A stretch of DNA of 64,000 bases from Flectonema sp. DT1601. Taxonomy: Eukaryota. Below are positions 6,001-33,200 of the stretch, piece by piece (position 1 is the first letter of the stretch; every line of letters begins with the position of its first letter). Made by a program: the position numbers and the translations under genes. Under the pieces are notes generated by a model that was not told the origin of the DNA, did not search any database, and was given only the letters and a program-made list of their open reading frames with translations. The stretch lies in NCBI GenBank assembly GCA_964019425.1, contig OZ025802.1, positions 1 through 64,000 of the forward strand, given 5' to 3'.

Positions 6001-9000
6001 GGTTTGCGGGTTTGCGGGTTTGCGGGTTTGCGGGTTTGCGGGTTTGCGGGTTTGCGGGTTTGCGGGTTTGCGGGTTTGCGGGTTTGCGGGTTTGCGGGTT
6101 TGCGGGTTTGCGGGTTTGCGGGTTTGCGGGTTTGCGGGTTTGCGGGTTTGCGGGTTTGCGGGTTTGCGGGTTTGCGGGTTTGCGGGTTTGCGGGTTTGCG
6201 GGTTTGCGGGTTTGCGGGTTTGCGGGTTTGCGGGTTTGCGGGTTTGCGGGTTTGCGGGTTTGCGGGTTTGCGGGTTTGCGGGTTTGCGGGTTTGCGGGTT
6301 TGCGGGTTTGCGGGTTTGCGGGTTTGCGGGTTTGCGGGTTTGCGGGTTTGCGGGTTTGCGGGTTTGCGGGTTTGCGGGTTTGCGGGTTTGCGGGTTTGCG
6401 GGTTTGCGGGTTTGCGGGTTTGCGGGTTTGCGGGTTTGCGGGTTTGCGGGTTTGCGGGTTTGCGGGTTTGCGGGTTTGCGGGTTTGCGGGTTTGCGGGTT
6501 TGCGGGTTTGCGGGTTTGCGGGTTTGCGGGTTTGCGGGTTTGCGGGTTTGCGGGTTTGCGGGTTTGCGGGTTTGCGGGTTTGCGGGTTTGCGGGTTTGCG
6601 GGTTTGCGGGTTTGCGGGTTTGCGGGTTTGCGGGTTTGCGGGTTTGCGGGTTTGCGGGTTTGCGGGTTTGCGGGTTTGCGGGTTTGCGGGTTTGCGGGTT
6701 TGCGGGTTTGCGGGTTTGCGGGTTTGCGGGTTTGCGGGTTTGCGGGTTTGCGGGTTTGCGGGTTTGCGGGTTTGCGGGTTTGCGGGTTTGCGGGTTTGCG
6801 GGTTTGCGGGTTTGCGGGTTTGCGGGTTTGCGGGTTTGCGGGTTTGCGGGTTTGCGGGTTTGCGGGTTTGCGGGTTTGCGGGTTTGCGGGTTTGCGGGTT
6901 TGCGGGTTTGCGGGTTTGCGGGTTTGCGGGTTTGCGGGTTTGCGGGTTTGCGGGTTTGCGGGTTTGCGGGTTTGCGGGTTTGCGGGTTTGCGGGTTTGCG
7001 GGTTTGCGGGTTTGCGGGTTTGCGGGTTTGCGGGTTTGCGGGTTTGCGGGTTTGCGGGTTTGCGGGTTTGCGGGTTTGCGGGTTTGCGGGTTTGCGGGTT
7101 TGCGGGTTTGCGGGTTTGCGGGTTTGCGGGTTTGCGGGTTTGCGGGTTTGCGGGTTTGCGGGTTTGCGGGTTTGCGGGTTTGCGGGTTTGCGGGTTTGCG
7201 GGTTTGCGGGTTTGCGGGTTTGCGGGTTTGCGGGTTTGCGGGTTTGCGGGTTTGCGGGTTTGCGGGTTTGCGGGTTTGCGGGTTTGCGGGTTTGCGGGTT
7301 TGCGGGTTTGCGGGTTTGCGGGTTTGCGGGTTTGCGGGTTTGCGGGTTTGCGGGTTTGCGGGTTTGCGGGTTTGCGGGTTTGCGGGTTTGCGGGTTTGCG
7401 GGTTTGCGGGTTTGCGGGTTTGCGGGTTTGCGGGTTTGCGGGTTTGCGGGTTTGCGGGTTTGCGGGTTTGCGGGTTTGCGGGTTTGCGGGTTTGCGGGTT
7501 TGCGGGTTTGCGGGTTTGCGGGTTTGCGGGTTTGCGGGTTTGCGGGTTTGCGGGTTTGCGGGTTTGCGGGTTTGCGGGTTTGCGGGTTTGCGGGTTTGCG
7601 GGTTTGCGGGTTTGCGGGTTTGCGGGTTTGCGGGTTTGCGGGTTTGCGGGTTTGCGGGTTTGCGGGTTTGCGGGTTTGCGGGTTTGCGGGTTTGCGGGTT
7701 TGCGGGTTTGCGGGTTTGCGGGTTTGCGGGTTTGCGGGTTTGCGGGTTTGCGGGTTTGCGGGTTTGCGGGTTTGCGGGTTTGCGGGTTTGCGGGTTTGCG
7801 GGTTTGCGGGTTTGCGGGTTTGCGGGTTTGCGGGTTTGCGGGTTTGCGGGTTTGCGGGTTTGCGGGTTTGCGGGTTTGCGGGTTTGCGGGTTTGCGGGTT
7901 TGCGGGTTTGCGGGTTTGCGGGTTTGCGGGTTTGCGGGTTTGCGGGTTTGCGGGTTTGCGGGTTTGCGGGTTTGCGGGTTTGCGGGTTTGCGGGTTTGCG
8001 GGTTTGCGGGTTTGCGGGTTTGCGGGTTTGCGGGTTTGCGGGTTTGCGGGTTTGCGGGTTTGCGGGTTTGCGGGTTTGCGGGTTTGCGGGTTTGCGGGTT
8101 TGCGGGTTTGCGGGTTTGCGGGTTTGCGGGTTTGCGGGTTTGCGGGTTTGCGGGTTTGCGGGTTTGCGGGTTTGCGGGTTTGCGGGTTTGCGGGTTTGCG
8201 GGTTTGCGGGTTTGCGGGTTTGCGGGTTTGCGGGTTTGCGGGTTTGCGGGTTTGCGGGTTTGCGGGTTTGCGGGTTTGCGGGTTTGCGGGTTTGCGGGTT
8301 TGCGGGTTTGCGGGTTTGCGGGTTTGCGGGTTTGCGGGTTTGCGGGTTTGCGGGTTTGCGGGTTTGCGGGTTTGCGGGTTTGCGGGTTTGCGGGTTTGCG
8401 GGTTTGCGGGTTTGCGGGTTTGCGGGTTTGCGGGTTTGCGGGTTTGCGGGTTTGCGGGTTTGCGGGTTTGCGGGTTTGCGGGTTTGCGGGTTTGCGGGTT
8501 TGCGGGTTTGCGGGTTTGCGGGTTTGCGGGTTTGCGGGTTTGCGGGTTTGCGGGTTTGCGGGTTTGCGGGTTTGCGGGTTTGCGGGTTTGCGGGTTTGCG
8601 GGTTTGCGGGTTTGCGGGTTTGCGGGTTTGCGGGTTTGCGGGTTTGCGGGTTTGCGGGTTTGCGGGTTTGCGGGTTTGCGGGTTTGCGGGTTTGCGGGTT
8701 TGCGGGTTTGCGGGTTTGCGGGTTTGCGGGTTTGCGGGTTTGCGGGTTTGCGGGTTTGCGGGTTTGCGGGTTTGCGGGTTTGCGGGTTTGCGGGTTTGCG
8801 GGTTTGCGGGTTTGCGGGTTTGCGGGTTTGCGGGTTTGCGGGTTTGCGGGTTTGCGGGTTTGCGGGTTTGCGGGTTTGCGGGTTTGCGGGTTTGCGGGTT
8901 TGCGGGTTTGCGGGTTTGCGGGTTTGCGGGTTTGCGGGTTTGCGGGTTTGCGGGTTTGCGGGTTTGCGGGTTTGCGGGTTTGCGGGTTTGCGGGTTTGCG

Positions 9001-12000
9001 GGTTTGCGGGTTTGCGGGTTTGCGGGTTTGCGGGTTTGCGGGTTTGCGGGTTTGCGGGTTTGCGGGTTTGCGGGTTTGCGGGTTTGCGGGTTTGCGGGTT
9101 TGCGGGTTTGCGGGTTTGCGGGTTTGCGGGTTTGCGGGTTTGCGGGTTTGCGGGTTTGCGGGTTTGCGGGTTTGCGGGTTTGCGGGTTTGCGGGTTTGCG
9201 GGTTTGCGGGTTTGCGGGTTTGCGGGTTTGCGGGTTTGCGGGTTTGCGGGTTTGCGGGTTTGCGGGTTTGCGGGTTTGCGGGTTTGCGGGTTTGCGGGTT
9301 TGCGGGTTTGCGGGTTTGCGGGTTTGCGGGTTTGCGGGTTTGCGGGTTTGCGGGTTTGCGGGTTTGCGGGTTTGCGGGTTTGCGGGTTTGCGGGTTTGCG
9401 GGTTTGCGGGTTTGCGGGTTTGCGGGTTTGCGGGTTTGCGGGTTTGCGGGTTTGCGGGTTTGCGGGTTTGCGGGTTTGCGGGTTTGCGGGTTTGCGGGTT
9501 TGCGGGTTTGCGGGTTTGCGGGTTTGCGGGTTTGCGGGTTTGCGGGTTTGCGGGTTTGCGGGTTTGCGGGTTTGCGGGTTTGCGGGTTTGCGGGTTTGCG
9601 GGTTTGCGGGTTTGCGGGTTTGCGGGTTTGCGGGTTTGCGGGTTTGCGGGTTTGCGGGTTTGCGGGTTTGCGGGTTTGCGGGTTTGCGGGTTTGCGGGTT
9701 TGCGGGTTTGCGGGTTTGCGGGTTTGCGGGTTTGCGGGTTTGCGGGTTTGCGGGTTTGCGGGTTTGCGGGTTTGCGGGTTTGCGGGTTTGCGGGTTTGCG
9801 GGTTTGCGGGTTTGCGGGTTTGCGGGTTTGCGGGTTTGCGGGTTTGCGGGTTTGCGGGTTTGCGGGTTTGCGGGTTTGCGGGTTTGCGGGTTTGCGGGTT
9901 TGCGGGTTTGCGGGTTTGCGGGTTTGCGGGTTTGCGGGTTTGCGGGTTTGCGGGTTTGCGGGTTTGCGGGTTTGCGGGTTTGCGGGTTTGCGGGTTTGCG
10001 GGTTTGCGGGTTTGCGGGTTTGCGGGTTTGCGGGTTTGCGGGTTTGCGGGTTTGCGGGTTTGCGGGTTTGCGGGTTTGCGGGTTTGCGGGTTTGCGGGTT
10101 TGCGGGTTTGCGGGTTTGCGGGTTTGCGGGTTTGCGGGTTTGCGGGTTTGCGGGTTTGCGGGTTTGCGGGTTTGCGGGTTTGCGGGTTTGCGGGTTTGCG
10201 GGTTTGCGGGTTTGCGGGTTTGCGGGTTTGCGGGTTTGCGGGTTTGCGGGTTTGCGGGTTTGCGGGTTTGCGGGTTTGCGGGTTTGCGGGTTTGCGGGTT
10301 TGCGGGTTTGCGGGTTTGCGGGTTTGCGGGTTTGCGGGTTTGCGGGTTTGCGGGTTTGCGGGTTTGCGGGTTTGCGGGTTTGCGGGTTTGCGGGTTTGCG
10401 GGTTTGCGGGTTTGCGGGTTTGCGGGTTTGCGGGTTTGCGGGTTTGCGGGTTTGCGGGTTTGCGGGTTTGCGGGTTTGCGGGTTTGCGGGTTTGCGGGTT
10501 TGCGGGTTTGCGGGTTTGCGGGTTTGCGGGTTTGCGGGTTTGCGGGTTTGCGGGTTTGCGGGTTTGCGGGTTTGCGGGTTTGCGGGTTTGCGGGTTTGCG
10601 GGTTTGCGGGTTTGCGGGTTTGCGGGTTTGCGGGTTTGCGGGTTTGCGGGTTTGCGGGTTTGCGGGTTTGCGGGTTTGCGGGTTTGCGGGTTTGCGGGTT
10701 TGCGGGTTTGCGGGTTTGCGGGTTTGCGGGTTTGCGGGTTTGCGGGTTTGCGGGTTTGCGGGTTTGCGGGTTTGCGGGTTTGCGGGTTTGCGGGTTTGCG
10801 GGTTTGCGGGTTTGCGGGTTTGCGGGTTTGCGGGTTTGCGGGTTTGCGGGTTTGCGGGTTTGCGGGTTTGCGGGTTTGCGGGTTTGCGGGTTTGCGGGTT
10901 TGCGGGTTTGCGGGTTTGCGGGTTTGCGGGTTTGCGGGTTTGCGGGTTTGCGGGTTTGCGGGTTTGCGGGTTTGCGGGTTTGCGGGTTTGCGGGTTTGCG
11001 GGTTTGCGGGTTTGCGGGTTTGCGGGTTTGCGGGTTTGCGGGTTTGCGGGTTTGCGGGTTTGCGGGTTTGCGGGTTTGCGGGTTTGCGGGTTTGCGGGTT
11101 TGCGGGTTTGCGGGTTTGCGGGTTTGCGGGTTTGCGGGTTTGCGGGTTTGCGGGTTTGCGGGTTTGCGGGTTTGCGGGTTTGCGGGTTTGCGGGTTTGCG
11201 GGTTTGCGGGTTTGCGGGTTTGCGGGTTTGCGGGTTTGCGGGTTTGCGGGTTTGCGGGTTTGCGGGTTTGCGGGTTTGCGGGTTTGCGGGTTTGCGGGTT
11301 TGCGGGTTTGCGGGTTTGCGGGTTTGCGGGTTTGCGGGTTTGCGGGTTTGCGGGTTTGCGGGTTTGCGGGTTTGCGGGTTTGCGGGTTTGCGGGTTTGCG
11401 GGTTTGCGGGTTTGCGGGTTTGCGGGTTTGCGGGTTTGCGGGTTTGCGGGTTTGCGGGTTTGCGGGTTTGCGGGTTTGCGGGTTTGCGGGTTTGCGGGTT
11501 TGCGGGTTTGCGGGTTTGCGGGTTTGCGGGTTTGCGGGTTTGCGGGTTTGCGGGTTTGCGGGTTTGCGGGTTTGCGGGTTTGCGGGTTTGCGGGTTTGCG
11601 GGTTTGCGGGTTTGCGGGTTTGCGGGTTTGCGGGTTTGCGGGTTTGCGGGTTTGCGGGTTTGCGGGTTTGCGGGTTTGCGGGTTTGCGGGTTTGCGGGTT
11701 TGCGGGTTTGCGGGTTTGCGGGTTTGCGGGTTTGCGGGTTTGCGGGTTTGCGGGTTTGCGGGTTTGCGGGTTTGCGGGTTTGCGGGTTTGCGGGTTTGCG
11801 GGTTTGCGGGTTTGCGGGTTTGCGGGTTTGCGGGTTTGCGGGTTTGCGGGTTTGCGGGTTTGCGGGTTTGCGGGTTTGCGGGTTTGCGGGTTTGCGGGTT
11901 TGCGGGTTTGCGGGTTTGCGGGTTTGCGGGTTTGCGGGTTTGCGGGTTTGCGGGTTTGCGGGTTTGCGGGTTTGCGGGTTTGCGGGTTTGCGGGTTTGCG

Positions 12001-12549
12001 GGTTTGCGGGTTTGCGGGTTTGCGGGTTTGCGGGTTTGCGGGTTTGCGGGTTTGCGGGTTTGCGGGTTTGCGGGTTTGCGGGTTTGCGGGTTTGCGGGTT
12101 TGCGGGTTTGCGGGTTTGCGGGTTTGCGGGTTTGCGGGTTTGCGGGTTTGCGGGTTTGCGGGTTTGCGGGTTTGCGGGTTTGCGGGTTTGCGGGTTTGCG
12201 GGTTTGCGGGTTTGCGGGTTTGCGGGTTTGCGGGTTTGCGGGTTTGCGGGTTTGCGGGTTTGCGGGTTTGCGGGTTTGCGGGTTTGCGGGTTTGCGGGTT
12301 TGCGGGTTTGCGGGTTTGCGGGTTTGCGGGTTTGCGGGTTTGCGGGTTTGCGGGTTTGCGGGTTTGCGGGTTTGCGGGTTTGCGGGTTTGCGGGTTTGCG
12401 GGTTTGCGGGTTTGCGGGTTTGCGGGTTTGCGGGTTTGCGGGTTTGCGGGTTTGCGGGTTTGCGGGTTTGCGGGTTTGCGGGTTTGCGGGTTTGCGGGTT
12501 TGCGGGTTTGCGGGTTTGCGGGTTTGCGGGTTTGCGGGTTTGCGGGTTT
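1..12549 (+). repeat. Telomere-like tandem array (TTTGCGGG)n, ~1,570 units
   Basis: Uninterrupted 8-bp period; only about five 1-2 nt indels, all within the first ~1010 bp; abrupt end at ...GCGGGTTT|TCCGTGTTG. Confidence 0.97.
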
Positions 12550-12920
12550 TCCGTGTTGTCATTCAGTGCAGTACGGAATCGTGTTATGCAATTACGAATT
12601 AATCGTGAGCCCTGGGAAACCAAAACTAGGGTATAATGTAATACGGCAGAGTGTAGGTTTCGCCTATAGTCTCGTCAAGAAATAAACAATTTTTATAAAA
12701 AAATAAAAATGAACATTTCTTTGTAAAATTCTTTATAAAAAAAGTTGTTAGCATCAATTGCTAGTTCGTAGCACACTACTAGCAGAGCACTCACCTTAAA
12801 TAAATTAAAGTAGTAATGTCCAAAATAAGTTGGAATAACATGAGGGGGTTACATAGTTCAACATTAAATGTTGGGGCATCAACGGGTCTAGAGTGAGAGA
12901 ATTTTAATGGCAAAGTCTGA

Positions 12921-14842: not shown

Positions 14843-15793
14843 TTATCCTTGTATGTATTTTGTGTATGTTATGCTGTATTCTTGTATTAAAATATCATTC
14901 TTGTCTTGCAGGGAAAGGCCGTGGCTAAAATCTGTGGCTTCCACTTCAAAACGCTTAAGGAGATCGGGGCGAGTAGTACGTAGATCGCGCAATCGGTGAC
15001 CAAGACCCGATTGCTTCGCGAGAGAACGGTAAGAAAAAATCTTAATAAGGCGCTCCCATTCAGCAGAAGCTGAAAACTTTTTCGACCAATTGGACGATTT
15101 CTCCATAATAACATTGTAGACACCGTGCATGTCAGAGTCCTGTGAGGATCTGAGGATGTCTAATTTAATTGATTGCGCTTGTTTATATAGCGTCTCAACT
15201 CTTTTGTGTCTGAGACCAACAGTGTTCTTTGAACCAGTAAAAAGGATAACTGTGTTCGCAGAGCGGACAAATCCCCACCATTTCTTCAAAAAAGGTTTAA
15301 TAATTTTGTCCATTTTTTTGGCAAAAGGGAGAGATAAGTCATGGATCATCAAACTCCATGTTATCCTTGACAATAACAAGTGTTGGACAGACCAAGCCTT
15401 CTGAGACCCATACAGTGGCATGGCGTCGACTTTTTTTAAAAAATTCCTAGTAAAAGTGGTCAGGCGCTCTCTCAATTTCTGTTCTTTGGCGTTCGGCTCA
15501 AACCAGCGCCCGAGGTATTTGAACTCCCCAGCTTCCTGGAGATTCGTAATCGGAACATTGTTAATCTTCAGGTCCGTGTTAGCTGGTTTCCCTTGTACAA
15601 AGCTGTGGGCAATGCATTTCTGGGGTTTCGCTTTCATACGAGACCAGGAAAGAAACTGTTCAAGCGACTTGATTAGCAATTTTGCCCCCGCCTTTGATGA
15701 CGTGGTAAGTTGTAAATCATCAGCAAAAGCTGCAACTAATAATAGTTGGAGGGATTTATTGTTAAACTCGCATCGCGTGTGCGGTGGGTTTAA
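14843..15793 (-). pseudogene. Truncated reverse transcriptase fragment of an RLE-type (R2/NeSL/HERO-like) non-LTR retrotransposon
   Basis: Frame extends upstream of the listed ORF to include LVAAFADDLQL, then WSRMKAKPQKC, FKYLGRWF and QHLLLSRITWSL (RT motifs 5-7 and thumb). N-terminal RT and endonuclease are missing. Confidence 0.8.
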
Positions 15794-16532: not shown

Positions 16533-16650
16533 CTTTGTGGAGCTGGCAGTTTTTTAAAACTTTGTGTGTGGAGCAGGCAGTTTTTGAAACTTTGTGGAGT
16601 GGGCGTTTTTTAAAACTTTGTGTGGAGCGGGCAGTTTTTTGAAACTTTCA
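16533..16650. repeat. Short degenerate ~30-bp tandem repeat (AAACTTTGTGTGGAGCGGGCAGTTTTT) x4
   Basis: Visible periodicity. Confidence 0.8.
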
Positions 16651-16654
16651 AATT

Positions 16655-17853
16655 AATAAAAAAGAATAAAAAAAAAAAAAAAAAGAATAAACAATGTTAT
16701 CATTGTTTTTTTTTTTATCTTTGTCGACTAATTTCTATTTTCCGTTTCTTTTCTTTAAAAAATAAATAAAAAGAATTTAAAATAAAAAAAAGAATAAACA
16801 ATGTTATCATTGTTTTTTTATCGATCGACTATGTCGATTACTTTCTATTTTCCGTCCTGGTCAAGACGCTAAACTGATTGTTTTTTTTTTTCAAAATAAA
16901 AAAAATATTAAAAAAAAAAAATTTAAAAAAAAAGAATAAACAATGTTATCATTATTTTTTCTTATCGTTCGACTTTGTCGACTAATTTCTATTTTCCGTT
17001 TCTTTTCTTTAAAAAATAAATAAAAAGAATTTAAAATAAAAAAAAAGAATAAACAATGTTATCATTGTTTTTTTTTATCGATCGACTATGTCGATTACTT
17101 TCTATTTTCCGTCCTGGTCAAGACGCTAAACTGATTGTTTTTTTTTTTCAAAATAAAAAAAATATTAAAAAAAAAAAAATTAAAAAAAAAGAATAAACAA
17201 TGTTATCATTATTTTTTCTTATCGTTCGACTTTGTCGACTAATTTCTATTTTCCGTTTCTTTTCTTTAAAAAATAAATAAAAAGAATTTAAAATAAAAAA
17301 AAAGAATAAACAATGTTATCATTGTTTTTTTATCGATCGACTATGTCGATTACTTTCTATTTTCCGTCCTGGTCAAGACGCTAAACTGAAAATGAATAAA
17401 AAAGAATAAAAAAAAAAAAAAAAAAAAAAAAGAATAAACAATGTTTTCAATGTTTTTTTTTTTATCGTTCGACTTTGTCGACTAATTTCTATTTTCCGTT
17501 TCTTTTCTTTAAAAAATAAATAAAAAGAATTTAAAATAAAAAAAAAGAATAAACAATGTTATCATTGTTTTTTTATCGATCGACTATGTCGATTACTTTC
17601 TATTTTCCGTCCTGGTCAAGACGCTAAACTGAAAATGAATAAAAAAGAATAAAAAAAAAAAAAAAAAAAAAAAAGAATAAACAATGTTTTCAATGTTTTT
17701 TTTTTTATCGTTCGACTTTGTCGACTAATTTCTATTTTCCGTTTTTTCTCTTTAAAAAATAAATAAAAAGAATTTAAAATAAAAAAAAAGAATAAACAAT
17801 GTTATCATTGTTTTTTTATCGATCGACTATGTCGATTACTTTCTATTTTCCGT
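16655..17853. repeat. AT-rich satellite with alternating A/B monomers (~245-bp dimer, about 5 copies)
   Basis: AGAATAAACAATGTT(A/T)TCA heads every monomer; monomers alternately continue TTTTCCGTTTCTTTTC or TTTTCCGTCCTGGTCAAGACGCTAAACTG. Confidence 0.92.
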
Positions 17854-17923
17854 AAACCCGCAAACCCGCAAACCCGCAAACCCGCAAACCCGCAAACCCG
17901 CAAACCCGCAAACCCGCAAACCC
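17854..17923 (-). repeat. Internal tract of the telomere-like octamer, (AAACCCGC)x8.75, inverted relative to the 12.5-kb array
   Basis: Perfect reverse complement of the terminal repeat. Confidence 0.95.
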
Positions 17924-17985: not shown

Positions 17986-19291
17986 TCACTTCGCCTGTAG
18001 ACGTGAGCCCCCCCCGGCGTTTCCCTTCGGTCTGAACTGAAAGCGGTTACCCACATTCAGTTTCTTTACAAAGGTTGGTGGGCGTGCTCTCTTCTTTTTT
18101 ACTATCAAGGCATTCGCCTTTTCTACAGGATCTTCGGATGCTATCAGTAGTTGCTCCTGAAGCCCCGACCGCTTTGTACCGTCTGTACAGAAAAAGTGTT
18201 GAAACCTTAACTGTCTCAACAAATCATCCCCCAACTTCACCAAGTGAGGAACCTGCGTCCAGCCTGTCACTCTTTCCATACCAAAAAGGAAGTTTGAGAG
18301 GTTCTCAAATTTTTCAACCAATAAGTCCCCTCCCAGACCATATTTTAGACCGGAAACATATCGGCCATCAAGCTTCATCACTAGTGTCGCCGCCCCCTTC
18401 GCTTCAAGGATTTCCTCCCATGCCTTGACCTCCTTTGCACATGACGGGTCAGTTATCAGTTCTAGGTGCTCTTCATGATCAGGTTCAGGCTGAGTATTCT
18501 GTTGTATCACCGGTGGCTGGAATGGCTGAGGTGGCATCCCCACTGGTGGCTGATGTGATAGTGGCGGTGGTGGCGGTGGCATCGGCATCTTCACTGCTTC
18601 GTGTTGCTGTGGTCGTGTCTCTTGTCTTTCTACCCGTGTTTTTAGCGAAACGAGTCCCGCCATTAGCGACTGCATTACAGTCTCGGTTTGTTGTTGCTGT
18701 TGCTGCTGTCTCATTGTAAAATCTTCGATGGTCGTCCTTATCGACCCCATCTCTTCAGCCGTGTTTTCCCTGTACCTGGCAACCGATTCAAACCTCTGAC
18801 CCACTCCAGAAAAGGTTGCCTCTGTCCGACTTTCTAACACCCTCGTTGCTTCGGCATTGTCTGAACATGTCTGCTGCGCCTGTTGACGCAGTAAGGCTGC
18901 ATCCTCCTGCAGACTGCCCATCGCATCGTTGGCGTCATCATACGACACGAGACAGGGGTTCCCCCCCCTTGACAGCCGCTCTCCAACCTTCGCGGCTTTT
19001 TCTGCTACCAATCCTCGATTTACCCTTGACAGCAGACCCAATAACACAACTGCATGTGTTATTGGGACCGTCGCCAATGATCCTTGCGGCATCCCCAAAG
19101 AGATGGCAAGTGTCCCCCTTACCATCTCCCTAAGCGATGTATCATTCCTCAGCTGATTGAGGTCCACTTCAAACGGGATATCTGCTTTTGCTGTATCCAA
19201 ATCAATCATTTCACTCTCTGTAGGTACCGGATTCCCTGTCTTTTTCTCCCATACATTCTTCAAGGCAGCAGGGAATGTAAACTCAACAAGT
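17986..19291 (-). pseudogene. Gag-like/coiled-coil ORF, distal copy lacking its ATG (interrupted by the LINE)
   Basis: Open frame with coiled-coil, poly-Q, poly-P and a basic C-terminus ending at an in-register G GGA AAC slippery site. The gag assignment is inference. Confidence 0.55.
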
Positions 19292-19740
19292 TAGTTAGTT
19301 AGTTAGTTAGCGAGTCCGACATACAATCGAGTACCGGTTAGCTAGACACAACAGGGTGGAACGGTTAACCACCTGTGAGTCCCCAATACTACGACTTTAT
19401 GTCAAACCTAATCCCTGAGAGGATCACTTTTTTAGCTCCAGCGAGGAATTCTAATGTTCGAGAGACCCGAATTCCTCAATGCTTCGGCCTTGACCGGTTC
19501 GCTAGCAAATTAACAGAGTTTGGGGAGGGGAAAGGAAGATGATAATGATAATGATAAAACGAAGAAAACAAAATAAAATAAAATAAAATAAAATAAAAAA
19601 AAAAAAATAAAATAAAATAAAATAAATCAATAAATAAACAAAATAAAGGAAAGGGATAGAGAATTCAGATCTGTTGAATAATAGTAATCCTGGATGATTT
19701 TGACTGCTACTGATGTTGATTTAAGTGAATACTGCCAAAG

Positions 19741-22700
19741 TCACATGCCAAGGGATATATCGATATAGGACCTAGTAGGAGGTCCACGGACCCTGTGGTC
19801 AAACCATTTGGGATCAATTCTTTTGTAGTCGGCGTAGTGGATCTTATTCAAAAGATCTGTGAATTGCGTTCCCACGATACCGAGGTAGCAATACAGTTCC
19901 ACTGTCCATAGATGTTCATGTATCTCCTTGATTTCGGTGCAGTCGTATGCTTGTGTGATGGCCTGCATGACTTCGGTCGTGTCATTCGGGGATAACTTTG
20001 GAAGTTTGGAGTACCTGTTGAGGTGCCACAGTAGTTTCTGTCTTGGTATGGCTACACGTAGCGGGAAACTCATTAAGTAGATGTTCAACTCCTTCAGCAT
20101 GGCGGCCAAAAATGGTTGGTTGTCGGTTTCGAAGAAGGTATGATGATGCTGGCCTACATTTTCCGTATTATCTATCGGAAGAATTGGGAAGAACTTTCGA
20201 ACTATCGGACTCACTCCCTTGCACTTAGAGAGGAGGTGGTGTGCATCTGTTTCGGTATGATCACAGAATTGGCAATCGGTTAGGCCCAAACCTGGCAGCT
20301 TAACTAATTTGTGGTGGCCAGTGCGTATTTGTGCAATACTCACTTCGTCCTCCCGAGAGATATCAGGATGAAACTTCTGTACTCTCCCAGCTGACGTAGC
20401 TAAGCAGTGTACGTGCATTGTGTCGCGGGATCTGAGCCATTCTCTTCTCACCTGGCTGATTATGGAACATTGGGCCATGCGGTAGTCGAACTCAACTTCC
20501 GTGAGCGGCAGGTCGGAAGCCGCCGCTTTGGAGGCTAGGTTGTCCGCCAATTCATTCCCTATCACACCACAGTGTGAGGGTACAAATTGAACTGATATCG
20601 GACGGTTTAGTGAGGATATCAGTTTAAATATCTTGCTGTTAGTACGCGAGGATTGGCATAGGTAGCCTTTAGCCAGGCTACTTAGCGACGACTGGCTGTC
20701 CGATATGACGTGAACGCGACCATATGGGAGCCGTGCTGAGTTCTCGCGGATGAGATCAAGGGCTGAGATTAGTGCGCGCTGTTCGGCGTTGTAAATCATG
20801 AGTGACGGATGGTAGCGTTGTTGCTTCTTGTAGCACTTGTTCCGGACGACGAGTACTGCTGCGTTGCCACAGTGGTAATTGCCATCCTTGTCCTCAAAAT
20901 ACGAAGCATCAGTGTATACTCTGGCAACTGCCGGCGGAAGAGACTCCAACGAAGCGATGGCAAATTTGAGGTTGAGTCCCGAGTCCTGTGACTTTCTGAA
21001 ATCTCTGTTAGGTATAATTGTTACGTTGGGTGGTGTTAACCACGGTGCTTGGTAATGTTGTAAATACATCTGCGATCTAAGTCGGGGTGTTGGATAGCGT
21101 CTAGATGAACGCGAGGCTGAAGCTTCCCACGGAGTCTCCTCGTTGCCTTTGAAGAGACCCCATGTCGGTAGATTATCATTGTATCGCTGGAATCGTTCAT
21201 AGCACAGTGCTAGGGACTTAGTTAGATGTTGCTGAAACGGTAGAATATCTGACTCAACTGATACTGCTGAGGTCGACGCCGATTGGGAGCAGCCCGTTAG
21301 TCTCAACATGAGTTTCCTGTGGACCGTGCTTACGTGTGTCCATGATTTCTCGCGGAGGAATGGGGCGTATGCGGCAAGGCCGTGGAATGCCCTAGCTAGT
21401 ACCAAACCATTCACCAGTTGTCTCAAAGTTTCCGTCTTGATCCTGAAGGATGAGATCATCTTTAGAAGACCAATTCCACGCTTCAGTGTGCTTTCCATTT
21501 TGTTCAATTGTGGAATAAAGGAGAGACGGTCGTCGATCAACACACCCAGATATCTCGCTTGTTCCACGCGCCTAAGAGGCTTGGCTGTTGTCATCGTTAG
21601 TGCCTTCTTACTCACTCTGCTTCGAAATTCTGAACGAGTCGACACCTTCCTTCCGTTTACAGTTAGGGGAAAGGTTGTTCCTCCATCGCGATTCAGTTGT
21701 GCTCCAGGTCCTATGTCTAAATCATCTAAAAGGTCCATCGGACTCGAAATGGACTCCAATTTTATAGTTGATGGAAGATACAGTCTAGGGAATCTACAGA
21801 GCCCCCTGCCAGGGTCAAACCGTGTGCCAATGGCTAGAAACTCCGTCTTCTCTATTGACAAACTCATTTCTGAGTCTACTAGCCAGCCCTCCACTTGCCG
21901 TATTGCCTCATTGGCTTTATCCTCCAGATCACCAACTTTCGTACTGCTAACAAATATTGATAGGTCGTCAGCATATAGAAGCTTCAGATCGGCACTCTTG
22001 ATCGACTGTGGTAGGGAGTTGACGTATAGTCTGAAGAGGAGAGGTCCAAGGATGCTACCTTGCGGGACACCTTTGTTACATTTGACCCTCTTCGAGAAGG
22101 ATTCGCCATATTGCAGACGGGCCGACCGGTGAGTTAAGAAATCGGAGATCCATCTAACGAAAGGCAACGGTAGGAGTGGTTTGAGTCTTGCGATTAACTT
22201 ATTATGATTAACATTATCAAATGCACCTGAGATGTCAAAGAACAGCAAAACCCCACATCTGTTAAAATCGCTTCTTACTTCGGATGCTGCATTTGTTAAG
22301 ACTGCAATGTTTTCTTCAGTAGTCCTGCCTGGGACGAAACCAGCTTGATTGGGGTCAAGGTTACCTTCCAAAATGTGCTCCAGCCGCCGGAGGATCAGAG
22401 ATTCAATGAATTTAGCCACAGTTGATGTCATCGAAATAGGACGGTACGACGATGGTTCCACTGGATCTTTTCCATTCCCTTTGAGAAATGGAATTACGTT
22501 TGCTTCTTTAAAACAATCTGGCAGAATGCCGCGCTGTAGTGACCAGTTGGCAATCCTGAGTAGGACCTCCTTCATCCCGGTTCCTAAGTGTAGAATCATG
22601 TTATTCGTGATTGCGTCAGGTCCCGCACTATCGGTCTTCCTGAGCGAGTGGAGAACGGCCTGGGCTTCTTCCAAAGAGAAGGGTTTACACTCAGGGATTT

Positions 22701-23787
22701 CGAGGTCTTCTGGTTTTACTGTTGGGGACTGTGATCTGCCTACATCGTTACTTGAGGGGAAAAAACGTTCCAACAGCGTCTTCAGCGGGGCTTGTGGTTT
22801 TGGAAGGGACGTTTTATCACCTCTAAGTTCTCTCAGTTTCCTGTATGTCCAAGAAAAACCCTTATCGCTGCTTCCTAGAACTACTTGATCCGGAGTGAGA
22901 GGGGTCAACTGACGTTTCGCTGCTGCACGACGAGGTTTGCACCACTTATTTGGCAACGTTGCAATCGCTGTTTTAATAATCGTTTGTGTAAAGTTCAATG
23001 AGAGTTTCTTCAATGATTTAACCTTAAGGAGACGGGCAGTGTGGATATCAAGCTTCTCAGTAAAATTCTTCCAGTGTTCGATAGAAAATCTTTTGTATAG
23101 CCATTTCCGGTGTGGAGGAGAGCCTTTCTCATTCGCAAGAGCCGAGATGTCGAAGTCCGCTAGAATAGGAGTATGGTCTGACATAAGGGTCTCTGGATCG
23201 TATTGGCAGATGCTAAGGCACTTGTGTTGTGGGGAGTGTAGAATAAGATCTGGAGTCGTACCGTGTCTGGGGATCGTGGGTCTGAGTTGAGTTATCTCCA
23301 AACCGTTGTCAGTAATCCAATTATTTACTACGTTACCAGCGTATCTTACAGTTACCTTATTTGTCCAGGACTCGTGGTGGGCATTGAAATCTCCGAAGGC
23401 CATATCGCCCAAATCGAATGTTTGCGGCAGGCTTGTAACACCTGGTGGTATGTATACATTATTAAATGTAATGGACCCCATGGCGGATGCTAAATTATAA
23501 CTAAGAATTTCTATATCTGAGGAATCAGGAGCAGTTTCCGGCAAGCGAGATATTTTCAGACCGTCTTTGAAGTAGGTGAGCAAACCACCACCACGACATT
23601 TGGAGCCAACAACTCTGTCCCTTCTTAGTGATGAGTATCCATTCATGTGAAGAAGGTCACAGCTGTTTTTATTGAGCCAGGTTTCTTGAAGATTAATAAT
23701 ATCAGGGTTAGTAGCGGATACTATTGACTCCAAAGCTGCTCGAGTGTTAGATAATGATCTAACGTTCCATGATAGTACTCTCAAAGG
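19741..23787 (-). CDS. LINE ORF2: AP endonuclease - reverse transcriptase - RNase H - CCHC finger
   Basis: SWNV, LQETWL, GDFNAHH, SDH (APE); YRPIS, QAGF, FFDISGAFD, GVPQGSILGP, YADD, YLGV (RT); YTDAS, SDSQS, VPSHCGVIGNELAD (RNase H); CQFC..H..C. No ATG before the APE motifs. Confidence 0.95.
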   Translation of the reverse strand, partial: PLRVLSWNVRSLSNTRAALESIVSATNPDIINLQETWLNKNSCDLLHMNGYSSLRRDRVVGSKCRGGGLLTYFKDGLKISRLPETAPDSSDIEILSYNLASAMGSITFNNVYIPPGVTSLPQTFDLGDMAFGDFNAHHESWTNKVTVRYAGNVVNNWITDNGLEITQLRPTIPRHGTTPDLILHSPQHKCLSICQYDPETLMSDHTPILADFDISALANEKGSPPHRKWLYKRFSIEHWKNFTEKLDIHTARLLKVKSLKKLSLNFTQTIIKTAIATLPNKWCKPRRAAAKRQLTPLTPDQVVLGSSDKGFSWTYRKLRELRGDKTSLPKPQAPLKTLLERFFPSSNDVGRSQSPTVKPEDLEIPECKPFSLEEAQAVLHSLRKTDSAGPDAITNNMILHLGTGMKEVLLRIANWSLQRGILPDCFKEANVIPFLKGNGKDPVEPSSYRPISMTSTVAKFIESLILRRLEHILEGNLDPNQAGFVPGRTTEENIAVLTNAASEVRSDFNRCGVLLFFDISGAFDNVNHNKLIARLKPLLPLPFVRWISDFLTHRSARLQYGESFSKRVKCNKGVPQGSILGPLLFRLYVNSLPQSIKSADLKLLYADDLSIFVSSTKVGDLEDKANEAIRQVEGWLVDSEMSLSIEKTEFLAIGTRFDPGRGLCRFPRLYLPSTIKLESISSPMDLLDDLDIGPGAQLNRDGGTTFPLTVNGRKVSTRSEFRSRVSKKALTMTTAKPLRRVEQARYLGVLIDDRLSFIPQLNKMESTLKRGIGLLKMISSFRIKTETLRQLVNGLVLARAFHGLAAYAPFLREKSWTHVSTVHRKLMLRLTGCSQSASTSAVSVESDILPFQQHLTKSLALCYERFQRYNDNLPTWGLFKGNEETPWEASASRSSRRYPTPRLRSQMYLQHYQAPWLTPPNVTIIPNRDFRKSQDSGLNLKFAIASLESLPPAVARVYTDASYFEDKDGNYHCGNAAVLVVRNKCYKKQQRYHPSLMIYNAEQRALISALDLIRENSARLPYGRVHVISDSQSSLSSLAKGYLCQSSRTNSKIFKLISSLNRPISVQFVPSHCGVIGNELADNLASKAAASDLPLTEVEFDYRMAQCSIISQVRREWLRSRDTMHVHCLATSAGRVQKFHPDISREDEVSIAQIRTGHHKLVKLPGLGLTDCQFCDHTETDAHHLLSKCKGVSPIVRKFFPILPIDNTENVGQHHHTFFETDNQPFLAAMLKELNIYLMSFPLRVAIPRQKLLWHLNRYSKLPKLSPNDTTEVMQAITQAYDCTEIKEIHEHLWTVELYCYLGIVGTQFTDLLNKIHYADYKRIDPKWFDHRVRGPPTRSYIDISLGM

Positions 23788-23880
23788 ACCAGGGTTTTGT
23801 TCAATACCAGACAGAATTAAGCGGCGTCTGGCAGTAGTAGAGAGATGGTACTCTTTGCTCGGTTGTTGATGTTGTAGTTG

Positions 23881-26115
23881 CTACTTCGATTTTTGGTTTC
23901 GGCAAGGCGATCTTCCTCTGGATTTGCCTGGGGTCCCAGATCTATCACCGTATGGGGAGAAGGACCCCAGTAACTGAGCTGCCATGTCCGATTCGCGGCC
24001 AATCAACGATTTTGACCTGGACCTCGACAGTATCGAGTTGCTGTTGGATTTCCTAGGAGGGGCTTTCATCTCCACAGAAGAAATTTCAATACATGGCAAC
24101 TGCTGATGTGATGTATCGGCGCTTGGAATATTCGAGTTCTGTTGCAGTGTCGCAGTTGGAACAGAAGTTGAGTTTTGATAATTTGAGTCTAATCGGGCCA
24201 TTAGCTCCGAGATTTGTTGCTGCATTTGTCCCTGACGTTCAAGTAGCTCTTCGATATGAGCGTCCTTTTCCGCTGCCTGAGATGTCGCCTTCAGCTGCGC
24301 CTTTTGATTGTCCTTAATTAACTCTGAGACTTGCTGCTGCATCCTTTCTTGTTGATCCATTAGCTTGTTGATGTGGGCATCCTTCTCAGATGTCAGCGAC
24401 TTATTAGTATTCTGTGCTGCCTGAAGGTTCTTCAGTAAATCAGTCGTCTGATTTGTCAGACCTGTGACCTCAGCTGTGAGTACGGCGTTCTGTTGTTGCA
24501 TTGTACTCTGTTGTTCAATGAGAGTTTGAATGCGGGCTTCTTTGCTCTCGTTGTGGGATGACGCCTCTAACTGGGAGGCTTTTTGATTCGCCATTAGATC
24601 CGATATCTGATCCGTCAAGGCAGTTATCTTCTCCGATAGGTGTAGGTTCTGAACCTGCATCTGTTGTTGGTAATCCTGGAGATCCTGGATTCGAGCATCC
24701 TTCTCAGTCAGTTGTTGTTGTGAAGAGTTGTTGGATGTTAAGTTTGTAGAGTTCTCTGCTACGGATGGCAAGGTGGAGGTGGTATTGTCTGTCGTAGTGT
24801 CAATCTCCATCGGTACATCTGTTGCTTCAGATTGAGAAGAAGGGAGCGGAGGGAATTCATCAGTGCTACGGGACGGCACCTCGCGTTTGGCTTCTTTATT
24901 TATTGAGAGTAGGCCATGGCCTTTGATGAAAAACGCTGTAATGTTAGGTTCCTCCAGGGACTTCACTACAAAATACCCTCTGGACCCTTTCTTTCGGAGG
25001 TGTGTTGCTTCTTCCACTGCCCAACCTTGACCAGCCAGAATCTTACACATGTCGGAAGAGCTGAGCCTATGAAGGTTCGGTCCTGTGATATAAAAACGGG
25101 AACCAGGTGTCGGAGGTGGCATTGCAAGGAGACCGATCTCTTTACGAGTGATCAATTCTCGATCGGGACTCTGTACCAAAGACAGCTTGTTTGTTCTGCG
25201 CGAGAGAATAATGGCAGCGCCGACTTTCTTCGCCGCCGAGGATGCTGTTTCGTAATCGGTGGTGTTGAGTCTGATGACTGAGGTAGTGGATAATTCTGTC
25301 TGGACTCGTTGAGGGATAGAGACGAAGTAACCTTTGTGTCTACTGGTGACATACAGTTGGAACAGATGGATGCGGGTCAATGGTACACGGATGTTGATTG
25401 TCTGAACCCTCGGGGTTCGTAGTTTGGATTCCCAAACTTGGTGGCGGTCGATTGCTGATAAGCCTGTTTGCTTTGCAAACTGGTTGTAGATGGTAATGGC
25501 TGAGTCGATTAGGTCAGTTGTATTAAGAATTTCCAAGCCGGAGTGACCTGGGTGGTGGTATAGCTGGATCACTGCTGATGGTAGCGGATTGTTTCCTGAA
25601 GGAATTAGGGACTTAGCGGGTGTTCCGGACACTGCCGTCATAAAAGCCTTGCGTACGACTGATTTGCCATCCACAAGCAGGGATACCTGGATTGGATTAC
25701 CTTTGCCAGGGTCTTCGGTGGTGATGGCCGTTAAGCGACCATTGTTGTTGCGGCGTTGGAGAAGGGGCAACTGGTCTGTTGGGAGTAGAAAGATTGCCTC
25801 CGTGATTGCTGGATTATTGATGACTGCAGAGCCATCTATAACTGGAATGTCCCAGCCCGGTTGACGAAGAGCCGCCTTACCCCACGACTTAGGTATATGT
25901 CGTTGTGGCTTGGCCGCTACTGCTGCCCACGACTTGCTCGGTTGTGGTGTATGTGTCGGCTTATTTCTTTGCGGCGGCGTTCTTTGCGGCGGAGACGTCT
26001 TAATTTTCGGTGGAGGCGGCGGAGACTGCTTGCCTCTTGTCGACGAGTTAGCAACTAGACTGATGAGGGTGTTTATTAGGGTCTTCAACTGGACCCCACT
26101 CTTCTTCTTCTTCAT
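23881..26115 (-). CDS. LINE ORF1 protein (744 aa; Pro/Lys-rich N-terminus, long Gln-rich coiled coil)
   Basis: Long ATG-initiated ORF starting 75 nt downstream of the SL, in frame with ORF2. Confidence 0.85.
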   Translation of the reverse strand: MKKKKSGVQLKTLINTLISLVANSSTRGKQSPPPPPKIKTSPPQRTPPQRNKPTHTPQPSKSWAAVAAKPQRHIPKSWGKAALRQPGWDIPVIDGSAVINNPAITEAIFLLPTDQLPLLQRRNNNGRLTAITTEDPGKGNPIQVSLLVDGKSVVRKAFMTAVSGTPAKSLIPSGNNPLPSAVIQLYHHPGHSGLEILNTTDLIDSAITIYNQFAKQTGLSAIDRHQVWESKLRTPRVQTINIRVPLTRIHLFQLYVTSRHKGYFVSIPQRVQTELSTTSVIRLNTTDYETASSAAKKVGAAIILSRRTNKLSLVQSPDRELITRKEIGLLAMPPPTPGSRFYITGPNLHRLSSSDMCKILAGQGWAVEEATHLRKKGSRGYFVVKSLEEPNITAFFIKGHGLLSINKEAKREVPSRSTDEFPPLPSSQSEATDVPMEIDTTTDNTTSTLPSVAENSTNLTSNNSSQQQLTEKDARIQDLQDYQQQMQVQNLHLSEKITALTDQISDLMANQKASQLEASSHNESKEARIQTLIEQQSTMQQQNAVLTAEVTGLTNQTTDLLKNLQAAQNTNKSLTSEKDAHINKLMDQQERMQQQVSELIKDNQKAQLKATSQAAEKDAHIEELLERQGQMQQQISELMARLDSNYQNSTSVPTATLQQNSNIPSADTSHQQLPCIEISSVEMKAPPRKSNSNSILSRSRSKSLIGRESDMAAQLLGSFSPYGDRSGTPGKSRGRSPCRNQKSK

Positions 26116-26190
26116 AGTTATTCAAAAAGGTGTTGTGACTGATGGGGGACGCACCTTACTGCTCTTTCACCGTTTTGTTTGGATCGAGAT

Positions 26191-26228
26191 CAATAAAGTA
26201 CAGAAACTGTAGCTTTAGAATCGTTGGT
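26191..26228 (-). other. Retroposed spliced-leader mini-exon (38 of 39 nt): ACCAACGATTCTAAAGCTACAGTTTCTGTACTTTATTG
   Basis: 3' half CAGTTTCTGTACTTTATTG is the conserved kinetoplastid/diplonemid SL end. 5' half resembles the Diplonema SL as I recall it. Not followed by a GT donor. Confidence 0.9.
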
Positions 26229-27033
26229 AGTATTCTGTTGTATCACCGGTGGCTGGAATGGCTGAGGTGGCATCCCCACTGGTGGCTGATGTGATAGTGG
26301 CGGTGGTGGCGGTGGCATCGGCATCTTCACTGCTTCGTGTTGCTGTGGTCGTGTCTCTTGTCTTTCTACCCGTGTTTTTAGCGAAACGAGTCCCGCCATT
26401 AGCGACTGCATTACAGTCTCGGTTTGTTGTTGCTGTTGCTGCTGTCTCATTGTAAAATCTTCGATGGTCGTCCTTATCGACCCCATCTCTTCAGCCGTGT
26501 TTTCCCTGTACCTGGCAACCGATTCAAACCTCTGACCCACTCCAGAAAAGGTTGCCTCTGTCCGACTTTCTAACACCCTCGTTGCTTCGGCATTGTCTGA
26601 ACATGTCTGCTGCGCCTGTTGACGCAGTAAGGCTGCATCCTCCTGCAGACTGCCCATCGCATCGTTGGCGTCATCATACGACACGAGACAGGGGTTCCCC
26701 CCCCCTTGACAGCCGCTCTCCAACCTTCGCGGCTTTTTCTGCTACCAATCCTCGATTTACCCTTGACAGCAGACCCAATAACACAACTGCATGTGTTATT
26801 GGGACCGTCGCCAATGATCCTTGCGGCATCCCCAAAGAGATGGCAAGTGTCCCCCTTACCATCTCCCTAAGCGATGTATCATTCCTCAGCTGATTGAGGT
26901 CCACTTCAAACGGGATATCTGCTTTTGCTGTATCCAAATCAATCATTTCACTCTCTGTAGGTACCGGATTCCCTGTCTTTTTCTCCCATACATTCTTCAA
27001 GGCAGCAGGGAATGTAAACTCAACAAGTGGCAT
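26229..27033 (-). pseudogene. Gag-like ORF, proximal copy (ATG at 27033; MPLVEFTF...QQNT), cut off by the LINE
   Basis: Matches 18493-19291 except one extra C in a poly-C run (~26697-26705) that shifts the frame. Confidence 0.7.
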
Positions 27034-27248: not shown

Positions 27249-27270
27249 TGCGGGTTTGCGGGTTTGCGGG
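27249..27270 (+). repeat. Short internal octamer tract TGCGGGTTTGCGGGTTTGCGGG, same orientation as the terminal array
   Basis: Directly follows GGTATCTCTAG. Confidence 0.85.
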
Positions 27271-31879: not shown

Positions 31880-33200
31880 TCATCTGTCTTTTGCATCTTC
31901 GTTATTTGAAAATGCGAAACCGTTCCCTGGAGTGTTGAGTTCGTTTCGGGTTAGGGTCTCATCATTGGACATGTACTGATTCAGGATAGTACTAATTTCC
32001 TCAAGTATTTCCTTGTGCGGTAAATTAGTGTACATGTCACTAAAGTCAAAGGACTTAACATTTCTATAGCTGAGACAAGTGTAGTTAGCTTTAATATACT
32101 TCGCTACCTCATCAACATTGTCAACTATGAAATATTTCTGTATTCCGGTTTTCCTTTCTTCTTCTTTTTCTATCGTTTTAATTCTAAACAATAGCGTTTT
32201 TAAGATGCCTGACAGTTCTTTTGACATCTCTGTGGTTGCAGTGAGAGGTTTGCCTCTAAACAAACAGTTGTCACCTTCCTTTTGAATATCGAAGTTTGTT
32301 TTTGAGGAAGAACCAGCTATGAAACGAAACTTCATCGGTTTCTTGTGAAACTTCGGACTACCATAAAGATATGGTAAGTTGTTTGTGTGTCTGAAGCCGT
32401 GTTTTTTGTTAAGTTTTTCTAACCTAATCATTTCCTCCTTGGTCTCTTCAATGTTGTATTCTTTGTAGACATTACAACCGTTGATTTGGTTGTTGAGGGT
32501 TTGTTGGTACAAATGTCTACAACACAGAGCTAGGTCGTGTGTTGTCTTGTCAATCTGGAGAAAACCCATGTGTTCTTTGATTTTAGTAATCTCTTTTTGT
32601 ACCGTTTGCAGTTCATTATTGTTTTGTAATGGTGGCATATTACTGATGTAACCTCTCAGGGTTGTTTTTAGAAACATCGCAAGATTAGTAAACTTGCTGT
32701 GATCATAATGCAATGAGATGAAATCATCAACTGCTGATTCTACTTCTTTGAGGATCTCATCGCTGTTATCATGTAGGCGATAACGGCCACCTTTAGAGAA
32801 GTAGGTTTTTGAATCTCTTTGTTGTCAGCAGCTTTGAAGCGTGAATTAGAACGTGAGAGTCTGTTCGTTTATTCTTGTCAACAAAGTTTTAGCAAGGGCA
32901 TTCTTTAGCCGATTTCAAATCTGTTTTTGGAAGAAACCTACTCTCCGTCGCATGATCACAAAGGATGTCTCTGAGAGTTGTATTGAGTCTACGAGACATC
33001 AAAAGGTTTTCGACTACTTACCGAAAGCTTCGATGTTCAACATGGTTACCCTTCAAAAGAAATACGGAAAGGATACTGAAGAGCTCGTTATCTTTGGTGG
33101 TGTTTTCTTTTATTCTGTTCACCCTTTGGGTGGTGAAGGTGTGTATTTTTAACGGGCAGGCAATGGCGGTTCACTTTGTCCAATCACCTTTCCGATCCCC
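31880..33200 (-). pseudogene. Penelope-like element (PLE) reverse transcriptase fragment
   Basis: CPC..HV, KGGRYR, IDK..CCRHLY, LPYLYGSPKFHKKPMKFRFIAGSS and SFDFSDMYTNLPH. Stops/frameshifts upstream; truncated after RT motif A. Upstream part is repeated at ~38610-38825. Confidence 0.8.

Follow-up and report, generated by a model that had tools for sequence, protein, structure and literature searches.

The window, by which we mean the whole 64-kb stretch of DNA that was analysed, contains an intact LINE of 6,937 bp (26228-19292, minus strand), in which a spliced leader (SL) sequence, a 75-nt untranslated region (UTR), ORF1, ORF2, a 3' UTR and a tail follow one another in this order. The coordinates of its parts and of the interrupted target are collected in Table 1. 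The element combines an APE-type endonuclease and a reverse transcriptase (RT) in one ORF, carries a tail of simple repeats, is flanked by a target duplication and has no LTRs, all of which mark it as a LINE.

Table 1. Features of the LINE and of its target site; coordinates are those of the window.
Feature	Position	Strand	Remarks
Target duplication, upstream copy, 800 bp	26229..27028	-	begins in codon 2 of the target gene
Head of the element: SL exon nt 2-39 (Diplonema type)	26191..26228	-	38/38 against the published consensus and SL RNA genes
5' UTR, 75 nt	26116..26190	-	five AG dinucleotides, none behind a strong pyrimidine tract
ORF1, 744 aa	23881..26115	-	predicted to contain a long coiled coil and alpha/beta domains with weak RRM likeness
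ORF1 stop in UAG CAA CUA context, type I readthrough motif	23875..23883	-	in frame with ORF2
2A-like motif IEQNPGP	23785..23805	-	ends a 31-codon linker and abuts the endonuclease domain; canonical D missing
ORF2, 1348 aa from the proline after the 2A-like site	19741..23787	-	APE endonuclease, reverse transcriptase, RNase H, one CCHC
3' UTR with long T-rich tract	19310..19740	-	
(TAAC)n tail, 4.5 units	19292..19309	-	repeat continues in the first 3 target bases (ACT)
Target duplication, downstream copy, 799 bp	18493..19291	-	identical to the upstream copy bar one homopolymer base
Interrupted gag-like ORF (ATG 27033)	17986..27033	-	cut short, closed by 8 copies of GGGTTTGC at 17860-17923

The coding part of the element is complete. 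ORF1 has relatives at 81% and at 45-52% identity that share both its start and its end, and the start is conserved in three subfamilies. Its predicted fold has a mean pLDDT of 50.6 and gave no PDB match at E <= 0.001, with RRM domains among the weak matches; Atlas matches for ORF1 and for the target gene stayed under 0.9. ORF2 is recognized by Pfam as PF14529, PF00078 and PF00075, with all catalytic motifs intact and with RNase H, at residues 909-1042 of the ATG-started ORF2, on the C-terminal side of RT. A single CCHC motif was found in each of four subfamilies by a scripted search for CCHC. ORF1 and ORF2 occupy one frame with a single internal stop at codon 745, and a readthrough-type context of this kind is found at 5 of the 987 TAG sites of the window. 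The type I readthrough motif is described as UAG followed by CAR YYA in tobamoviruses, and UAG CAA CUA itself is listed for Providence virus (PMC3542737). The first ATG of ORF2 lies 47 codons into the endonuclease, and the sister family P0002 likewise has no methionine before the middle of this domain. The relative P0003 carries VHPNPGP before the endonuclease, at the position equivalent to the 2A-like motif of the LINE. Most L1Tc elements are described as having DIEQNPGP at this place, and many 2A-like motifs as inactive (PMC3708506). Judged from the reading frame, ORF1 and ORF2 would thus be coupled through a putative virus-type leaky stop and a candidate 2A-like site, an arrangement that appears to be new here; the literature searched, which included few subscription journals, yielded no report of readthrough combined with 2A in a LINE.

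The first bases of the element are those of a spliced leader. The 38-mer at 26228-26191 (minus strand) fits nt 2-39 of the Diplonema SL consensus in the supplement of PMC3795323 at all 38 positions, and is identical at 36 of 38 positions to a single SL variant in the main table of the same paper. The window has no other SL match; 0.02 matches are expected by chance with a 19-base SL core and up to three mismatches. Two SL RNA genes, one on a 636-base contig from run X1 and the second in locus L005, carry the same 38 bases with an A (nt 1) before them and a GT donor after them. In the window, the 38-mer stands between a T, with which the duplicated target ends, and an A, which leaves it without SL nt 1 and without the SL intron. 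The head of the LINE is therefore not an SL RNA gene or orphon, having an A and a UTR in place of the GT donor and the intron. The junction is clean to the base, 26229 being the last position of the 800-bp duplication and 26228 the first of the SL, with zero bases in common, and at the far end of the UTR the ORF1 ATG follows directly. The initial annotation, made from the letters of the window, had placed the 5' boundary at SL nt 2-39, joined to a 75-nt UTR without SL intron, and had regarded a different SL in the host as fatal to its reading. The boundary and the missing intron hold against the published consensus and both SL RNA genes, which have GT where the LINE has A, and the SL genes from run X1 and L005 agree with the 38 bases throughout. 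Judged by this leader, the host is likely a marine diplonemid. Of the five AGs in the UTR, the strongest candidate follows 20 bases with 11 pyrimidines; the last 16 bases of the SL hold 12 pyrimidines, ahead of its terminal TG.

No ribozyme is visible at this end, as the initial annotation had also stated. A search of Rfam at E values up to 10 returned a single chance match outside the LINE; a simple purpose-made HDV-type descriptor, run without a positive control, had 0 matches in the first 120 nt of the LINE and matched 1 of 30 shuffles; and the predicted folding of the 116-nt 5' end is on a par with that of its shuffles (z -0.03). At the start of the UTR, comparison with the SL gave matches at only 4 of 22 and 4 of 16 positions, so no stacked leader stands behind the SL. 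A match of 13 of 22 further into the UTR (reached in 91 of 5000 shuffles) was rejected as a relict SL in view of the controls, 783 of 5000 for the full SL and 58 of 683 genomic windows. A possible second copy of the junction, P0215, whose last residues derive from the SL, was rejected: its contig and the one with ORF1 of the window are equal in length, and it is counted as the same locus. The interrupted target ORF (26190-26657, minus strand) reads through the SL and is closed by a TGA made of the last two SL bases and the first UTR base. This stop lies 74 bases 5' of the ORF1 ATG, and reinitiation on ORF1 would in principle be possible in a transcript that reads through from the target.

The LINE interrupts a gag-like gene that is itself repeated. 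The target gene has 44 relatives, some of them on other contigs (at least three); one relative, P0247, continues into text that, read by eye, is recombinase-like and then RT-like, and none of nine target-gene relatives matched Pfam. The target is likely, on the strength of these readings, a tyrosine-recombinase retrotransposon of the VIPER/TATE type. The repeat flanking the LINE is a target duplication and not an LTR, because the duplicated gag-like gene continues beyond both copies. The upstream copy has one extra homopolymer base relative to 18493-19291, and run X1 agrees with the downstream copy there. Since the two copies are nearly identical and the catalytic motifs are intact, the insertion is young. 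Target duplications of 100-200 bp are known for R9 and RTE, and kilobase-long ones for L1 in cultured cells. The duplication of 800 bp is exceptional in length; that of L1Tc is given as 9 bp (PMC5814959). In run X1 (share 0.08; low-depth assembly) the SL gene and the target gene are covered and the LINE body is not, a gap that is uninformative. Its target contigs differ from the target gene of the window at 2 and 8 positions over about 580 and 700 bases, and share only 14 bases at the insertion point, an overlap too short to bridge an empty site; that a contig of X1 ends exactly at 26229/18493 is taken as chance in a low-depth assembly.

Beyond position 12,550, in the non-repeat part of the window, 15 of the 16 ORFs of at least 200 aa lie on the strand of the LINE, and the sixteenth is antisense within ORF2. 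The orientation relative to transcription units, a check proposed in the initial annotation, thus came out parallel, a single case with even prior odds. In D. papillatum, essentially all mRNAs are described as SL-capped and the genes as arranged in unidirectional clusters (PMC10161547).

The rest of the window is rich in repeats. A 12.5-kb array of GGGTTTGC fills positions 1-12543 on the plus strand; two copies lie upstream of the target at 27252-27267, and the eight copies at 17860-17923 that close the truncated target element run opposite to the array. The repeat could be an unusual telomere repeat; the direction of the long array is wrong for a left chromosome end. A very AT-rich tandem repeat block at 16600-17850 separates a LINE-fragment region from the short GGGTTTGC run. 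Retroelement-like fragments were seen by eye at 14843-15637 and 31880-32677 (both minus strand), with no Pfam match and no SL nearby; the second has what we take to be Penelope-type RT motifs. Further proteins recognized by eye on the minus strand are a 1410-aa protein (45598-49830), which contains four internal repeats and ends in a membrane/reductase-like region, and a pair of membrane kinases (53629-55821 and 58327-60456) that are paralogues and carry C-terminal tandem peptide repeats. Comparison of two unrelated ORFs of the window yielded nothing.

Searches with the SL outside the window gave 4 matches in viral contigs, 1 in genome contigs (L005) and 12 in metagenome contigs; the SL patterns began at nt 3, and the metagenome pattern excluded matches followed by G and required 21 bases upstream. 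Within L005, positions 1-2578 form a compact euglenozoan cluster of SL RNA, 5S rRNA (twice), U5, U6, SRP RNA and 10 tRNA genes, which stands as a contig of a bacterial genome record and is contamination; no relatives of the LINE were found in the record. The other 16 matches are in giant-virus-like loci: L001-L004 lie on one 237,777-bp IMG/VR contig, L002 encoding an A32-type packaging ATPase, and L006-L017 lie on metagenome contigs (two of the 12 being 99.9% alike), their viral nature being judged from composition and gene density. All 16 hold the complete 39-nt SL including nt 1-2, with T before it and AAAAWTGA 18-19 bases upstream, which we take to be an early promoter; an ATG follows 8-68 bases after the SL, and GC is higher after the SL than before it. 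No relative of ORF1, ORF2 or the target is encoded at any of the 16. These loci, in which a complete diplonemid-type SL stands behind a promoter motif, are new here. They point to diplonemid-type hosts, and to viral messages made host-like or to captured host mRNAs; we found no report of SL cassettes in giant viruses in the literature searched, which covered few subscription journals.

We conclude that this copy of the LINE was most likely reverse-transcribed from a trans-spliced RNA, because the element is joined to the SL at the last base of the exon and ends in a tail within a target duplication. The initial annotation had proposed retrotransposition of a trans-spliced RNA for the family; for this copy alone, the exon-exact junction, the tail, the duplication and the sense orientation uphold it. 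That annotation says nothing of the 800-bp duplication, the putatively leaky stop or the 2A-like motif. Its history may be pictured as follows. The parent copy would have been transcribed by read-through within a host polycistronic unit, and the host would have trans-spliced the SL onto an acceptor just 5' of the 75-nt UTR and so produced a capped RNA fit for translation. ORF1 would be translated from this RNA, while a few ribosomes may pass the UAG CAA CUA and the 2A-like site would, if active, release an ORF2 protein beginning at its endonuclease. This endonuclease may then have nicked the gag-like gene of another repeat, where the tail could prime on three matching bases; RT would have run to SL nt 2, likely blocked by a modified cap-adjacent base, and a second nick 800 bp away would have produced the long duplication.

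An RT stop at the cap-proximal base is a plausible explanation for the lost SL nt 1, at a single junction. This base is absent in the LINE, whereas all 16 promoter-driven viral copies and both SL genes have it. The first modified cap nucleotide of kinetoplastids is not known to pair normally. Kinetoplastid caps are described as having four modified nucleotides (PMC3388326), and the accessible part of the literature searched holds nothing on the structure of the diplonemid cap. Points against the reading as a whole are the single copy, an acceptor-bearing parent not seen, the unspliced RNA of ingi and L1Tc, the nearest studied relatives in layout, the length of the 800-bp duplication, the single case of orientation, and a 2A-like motif that lacks the canonical D.

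Whether trans-splicing is the regular 5'-end route of the whole LINE family is, in our estimate, evenly balanced. Three sister ORF2 clusters have 18, 10 and 15 members at 70, 54 and 52% identity, and two sister ORF1 clusters have 1 and 5 members (those listed for P0161 being spread over about seven contigs); since these lie on long, partly shared contigs, the clade looks active in one genome. No ORF2 relatives were found in viral contigs (0 of 109 candidate stretches), and no ORF1 relatives in metagenome contigs (0 of 230 candidates). The main competitor of a regular route, tenable although we hold it for the lesser chance, is an occasional event, in which the family normally carries a longer leader with a promoter or ribozyme and the transcript behind this copy was trans-spliced inside that leader, giving a shortened and probably dead-end daughter. 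Such an own start is what the ingi and L1Tc elements have, their transcripts being described as unspliced RNA from +1 under a Pr77 promoter and an HDV-like ribozyme (PMC1874656, PMC4035085), and this LINE shares with them RNase H and the placing of a 2A-like site before the endonuclease. No longer 5' end has been seen either, and the ORF1 start is the same in the three subfamilies. This LINE also differs from ingi in a large ORF1 that would be needed in quantity, and unspliced RNA of the L1Tc type is reported to be poorly translated (PMC1874656). The exact ORF1 of the window is on one contig, in a one-member cluster, as expected of an isolated event; because the gene calls are incomplete, ORF2 of the window itself being missing from the collection, this says little about a parent. 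The lack of a relict behind the leader fits an own start as well, since a parent headed by an SL and re-spliced at one of its internal AGs (SL nt 16-17 or 22-23) would have left one.

It is very unlikely that the LINE carries the SL permanently in its DNA, passing it on with each copy and using it in cis in the manner of the giant-virus-like loci. Those 16 loci, with the identical SL in DNA ahead of a short UTR and an ATG, do make a cis-encoded SL viable in mobile DNA of this host group. They keep nt 1-2 behind AAAAWTGA without exception, however, and the LINE, having neither the motif nor nt 1, departs from them in a way that argues against use of the SL in cis. Upstream of its SL is the coding sequence of the target, and a terminal base would be lost again at each round of copying.

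Joining by a template switch of RT or by RNA ligation, through which a 5'-shortened LINE cDNA would have met an SL RNA, deserves very little credence. U6-L1 chimeras are a precedent for such joins. In Perkinsela, moreover, SL RNA gene fragments are described as adjoining ingi-type elements on either side and either strand; these fragments, however, are 113-431 bases long and not bare exons (PMC5601477). Copying of the intron would be expected from such a switch, but the join observed here is at the last base of the exon, with zero intron bases, and ORF1 and its UTR are whole. Equally improbable is an assembly chimera, or a recombination between two insertions in a repeated target: the target is indeed repeated, its relatives being spread over three other contigs or more, and its duplication copies differ solely in a homopolymer as in typical long-read error, but both junctions are base-exact and retrotransposition-like, no second near-identical element is on record for recombination or mis-joining, and such an event could account for the length of the duplication, not for an exon-exact SL ahead of the UTR.

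With retrotransposition of a trans-spliced RNA as the preferred origin of this copy, the fate of its daughters becomes the next question. The initial annotation had listed three outcomes for copies that lose the acceptor, namely re-use of an AG inside the SL, use of a flanking acceptor, or a dead end; the list omitted the five AGs of the UTR and the terminal TG of the SL. With a UTR AG as acceptor, the UTR would become shorter; with the TG that closes the SL, the 5' end would be restored to the base. In Perkinsela, TG is reported as acceptor 26% of the time, with diplonemids named as another exception to the AG rule (PMC5601477), and a TG acceptor has been proposed for relict leaders of dinoflagellates (PMC12014239). 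A promoter-less, self-renewing LINE family can be imagined on this basis, landing in the sense direction in polycistronic units, each daughter being re-spliced by the host at the SL-terminal TG, which would exchange its old leader for a new capped one, and ORF2 being dosed by the leaky stop and the 2A skip; we consider it unlikely. If it were true, every generation would be identical in form to this copy, with neither a relict leader nor a master copy.

The copy bears on a general problem of LINEs, whose full 5' end has to be rebuilt at each round of copying. The accepted answer in Euglenozoa, the internal promoter and ribozyme of ingi and L1Tc, avoids trans-splicing because splicing would strip the start of the element; those who described ingi and L1Tc indeed held that unspliced RNA was needed to keep copies autonomous (PMC1874656). 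The present copy shows that the opposite route can yield an intact, apparently autonomous euglenozoan insertion. If sister copies agree, host trans-splicing would be a further means of defining the 5' end of a LINE. The junction may also record in DNA the stop of RT on a diplonemid cap. A leaky stop followed by a 2A-like site would further be a model for the expression of ORF2 that departs from the described link between 2A and the loss of ORF1 (PMC3894237, PMC3708506).

Among known systems, the LINE is closest in layout to ingi and L1Tc, with which it shares the euglenozoan host group and the joining of APE, RT and RNase H in one protein. Like most L1Tc elements it has IEQNPGP right before the endonuclease, although the D of the canonical GD[V/I]ExNPGP is missing; the VHPNPGP of P0003 is the motif of a Perkinsela ingi protein. 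It departs from the ingi clade in several respects. Members of that clade have a single ORF and, with few exceptions, no ORF1 (PMC3708506), whereas this LINE has a 744-aa ORF1 and a putatively leaky UAG. Where they have a 77-nt promoter and HDV ribozyme at the 5' end, the LINE has the SL and 75 nt, and Rfam, the HDV-type descriptor and folding revealed no such module. The internal promoter and ribozyme with which the initial annotation had contrasted this family are indeed in print, as cited above, for L1Tc and ingi. The clade has a poly(A) tail and a short duplication, in contrast to the (TAAC)n tail and 800-bp duplication found here. It is also described with two C-terminal C2H2 fingers; the scripted search of this LINE, for CCHC, gave one CCHC motif. 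No named ingi or L1Tc protein is among the matches listed. We regard the LINE as ingi-like in layout and, since it fails several of these features, do not file it in the ingi clade. The predicted join of ORF1 and ORF2 has the UAG CAR YYA of tobamovirus and Providence virus readthrough (PMC3542737), here in a LINE and with a 2A-like site downstream.

Elements of the CRE/SLACS/CZAR type are likewise non-LTR elements beside SL sequence in euglenozoan genomes, but they insert between exon nt 11 and 12 within SL genes (PMC5814959), whereas here the exon is unsplit and the endonuclease is of the APE type. The LINE has gag-like flanks, with no SL intron or SL gene repeat beside it and no other SL match in the window; theirs is a different arrangement, as the initial annotation had held. 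The D. papillatum genome paper lists LINE, SLACS and TATE ORFs, its available text giving no analysis of their ends (PMC10161547), and the available text of PMC4558846 and PMC13393146 contains nothing bearing on SL-headed LINEs. An intact SL-headed LINE in a euglenozoan was not found in the literature searched, which included few subscription journals and on which the Perkinsela Supplementary Note may bear. For Schistosoma mansoni, six loci are on record where an SL exon is fused to a transposable element, and the authors allow for either retro-transcription of a trans-spliced element or an assembly chimera; in the available text these cases are a remark and a table of coordinates, with no element anatomy, junction or duplication given (PMC5832876).

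The closest parallel in mechanism lies in the SL-tagged retrogenes of dinoflagellates, reportedly described by Slamovits and Keeling in 2008. They too are DNA copies headed by the host SL through reverse transcription of trans-spliced RNA (PMC12014239, PMC3229502). The dinoflagellate retrogenes, however, derive from host genes that were copied in trans, and relict leaders are often stacked in them, whereas here the RNA is the retrotransposon's own, the setting is euglenozoan, and one near-complete leader is present with no relict behind it. This LINE copy works like an SL-tagged retrocopy of the retrotransposon itself.
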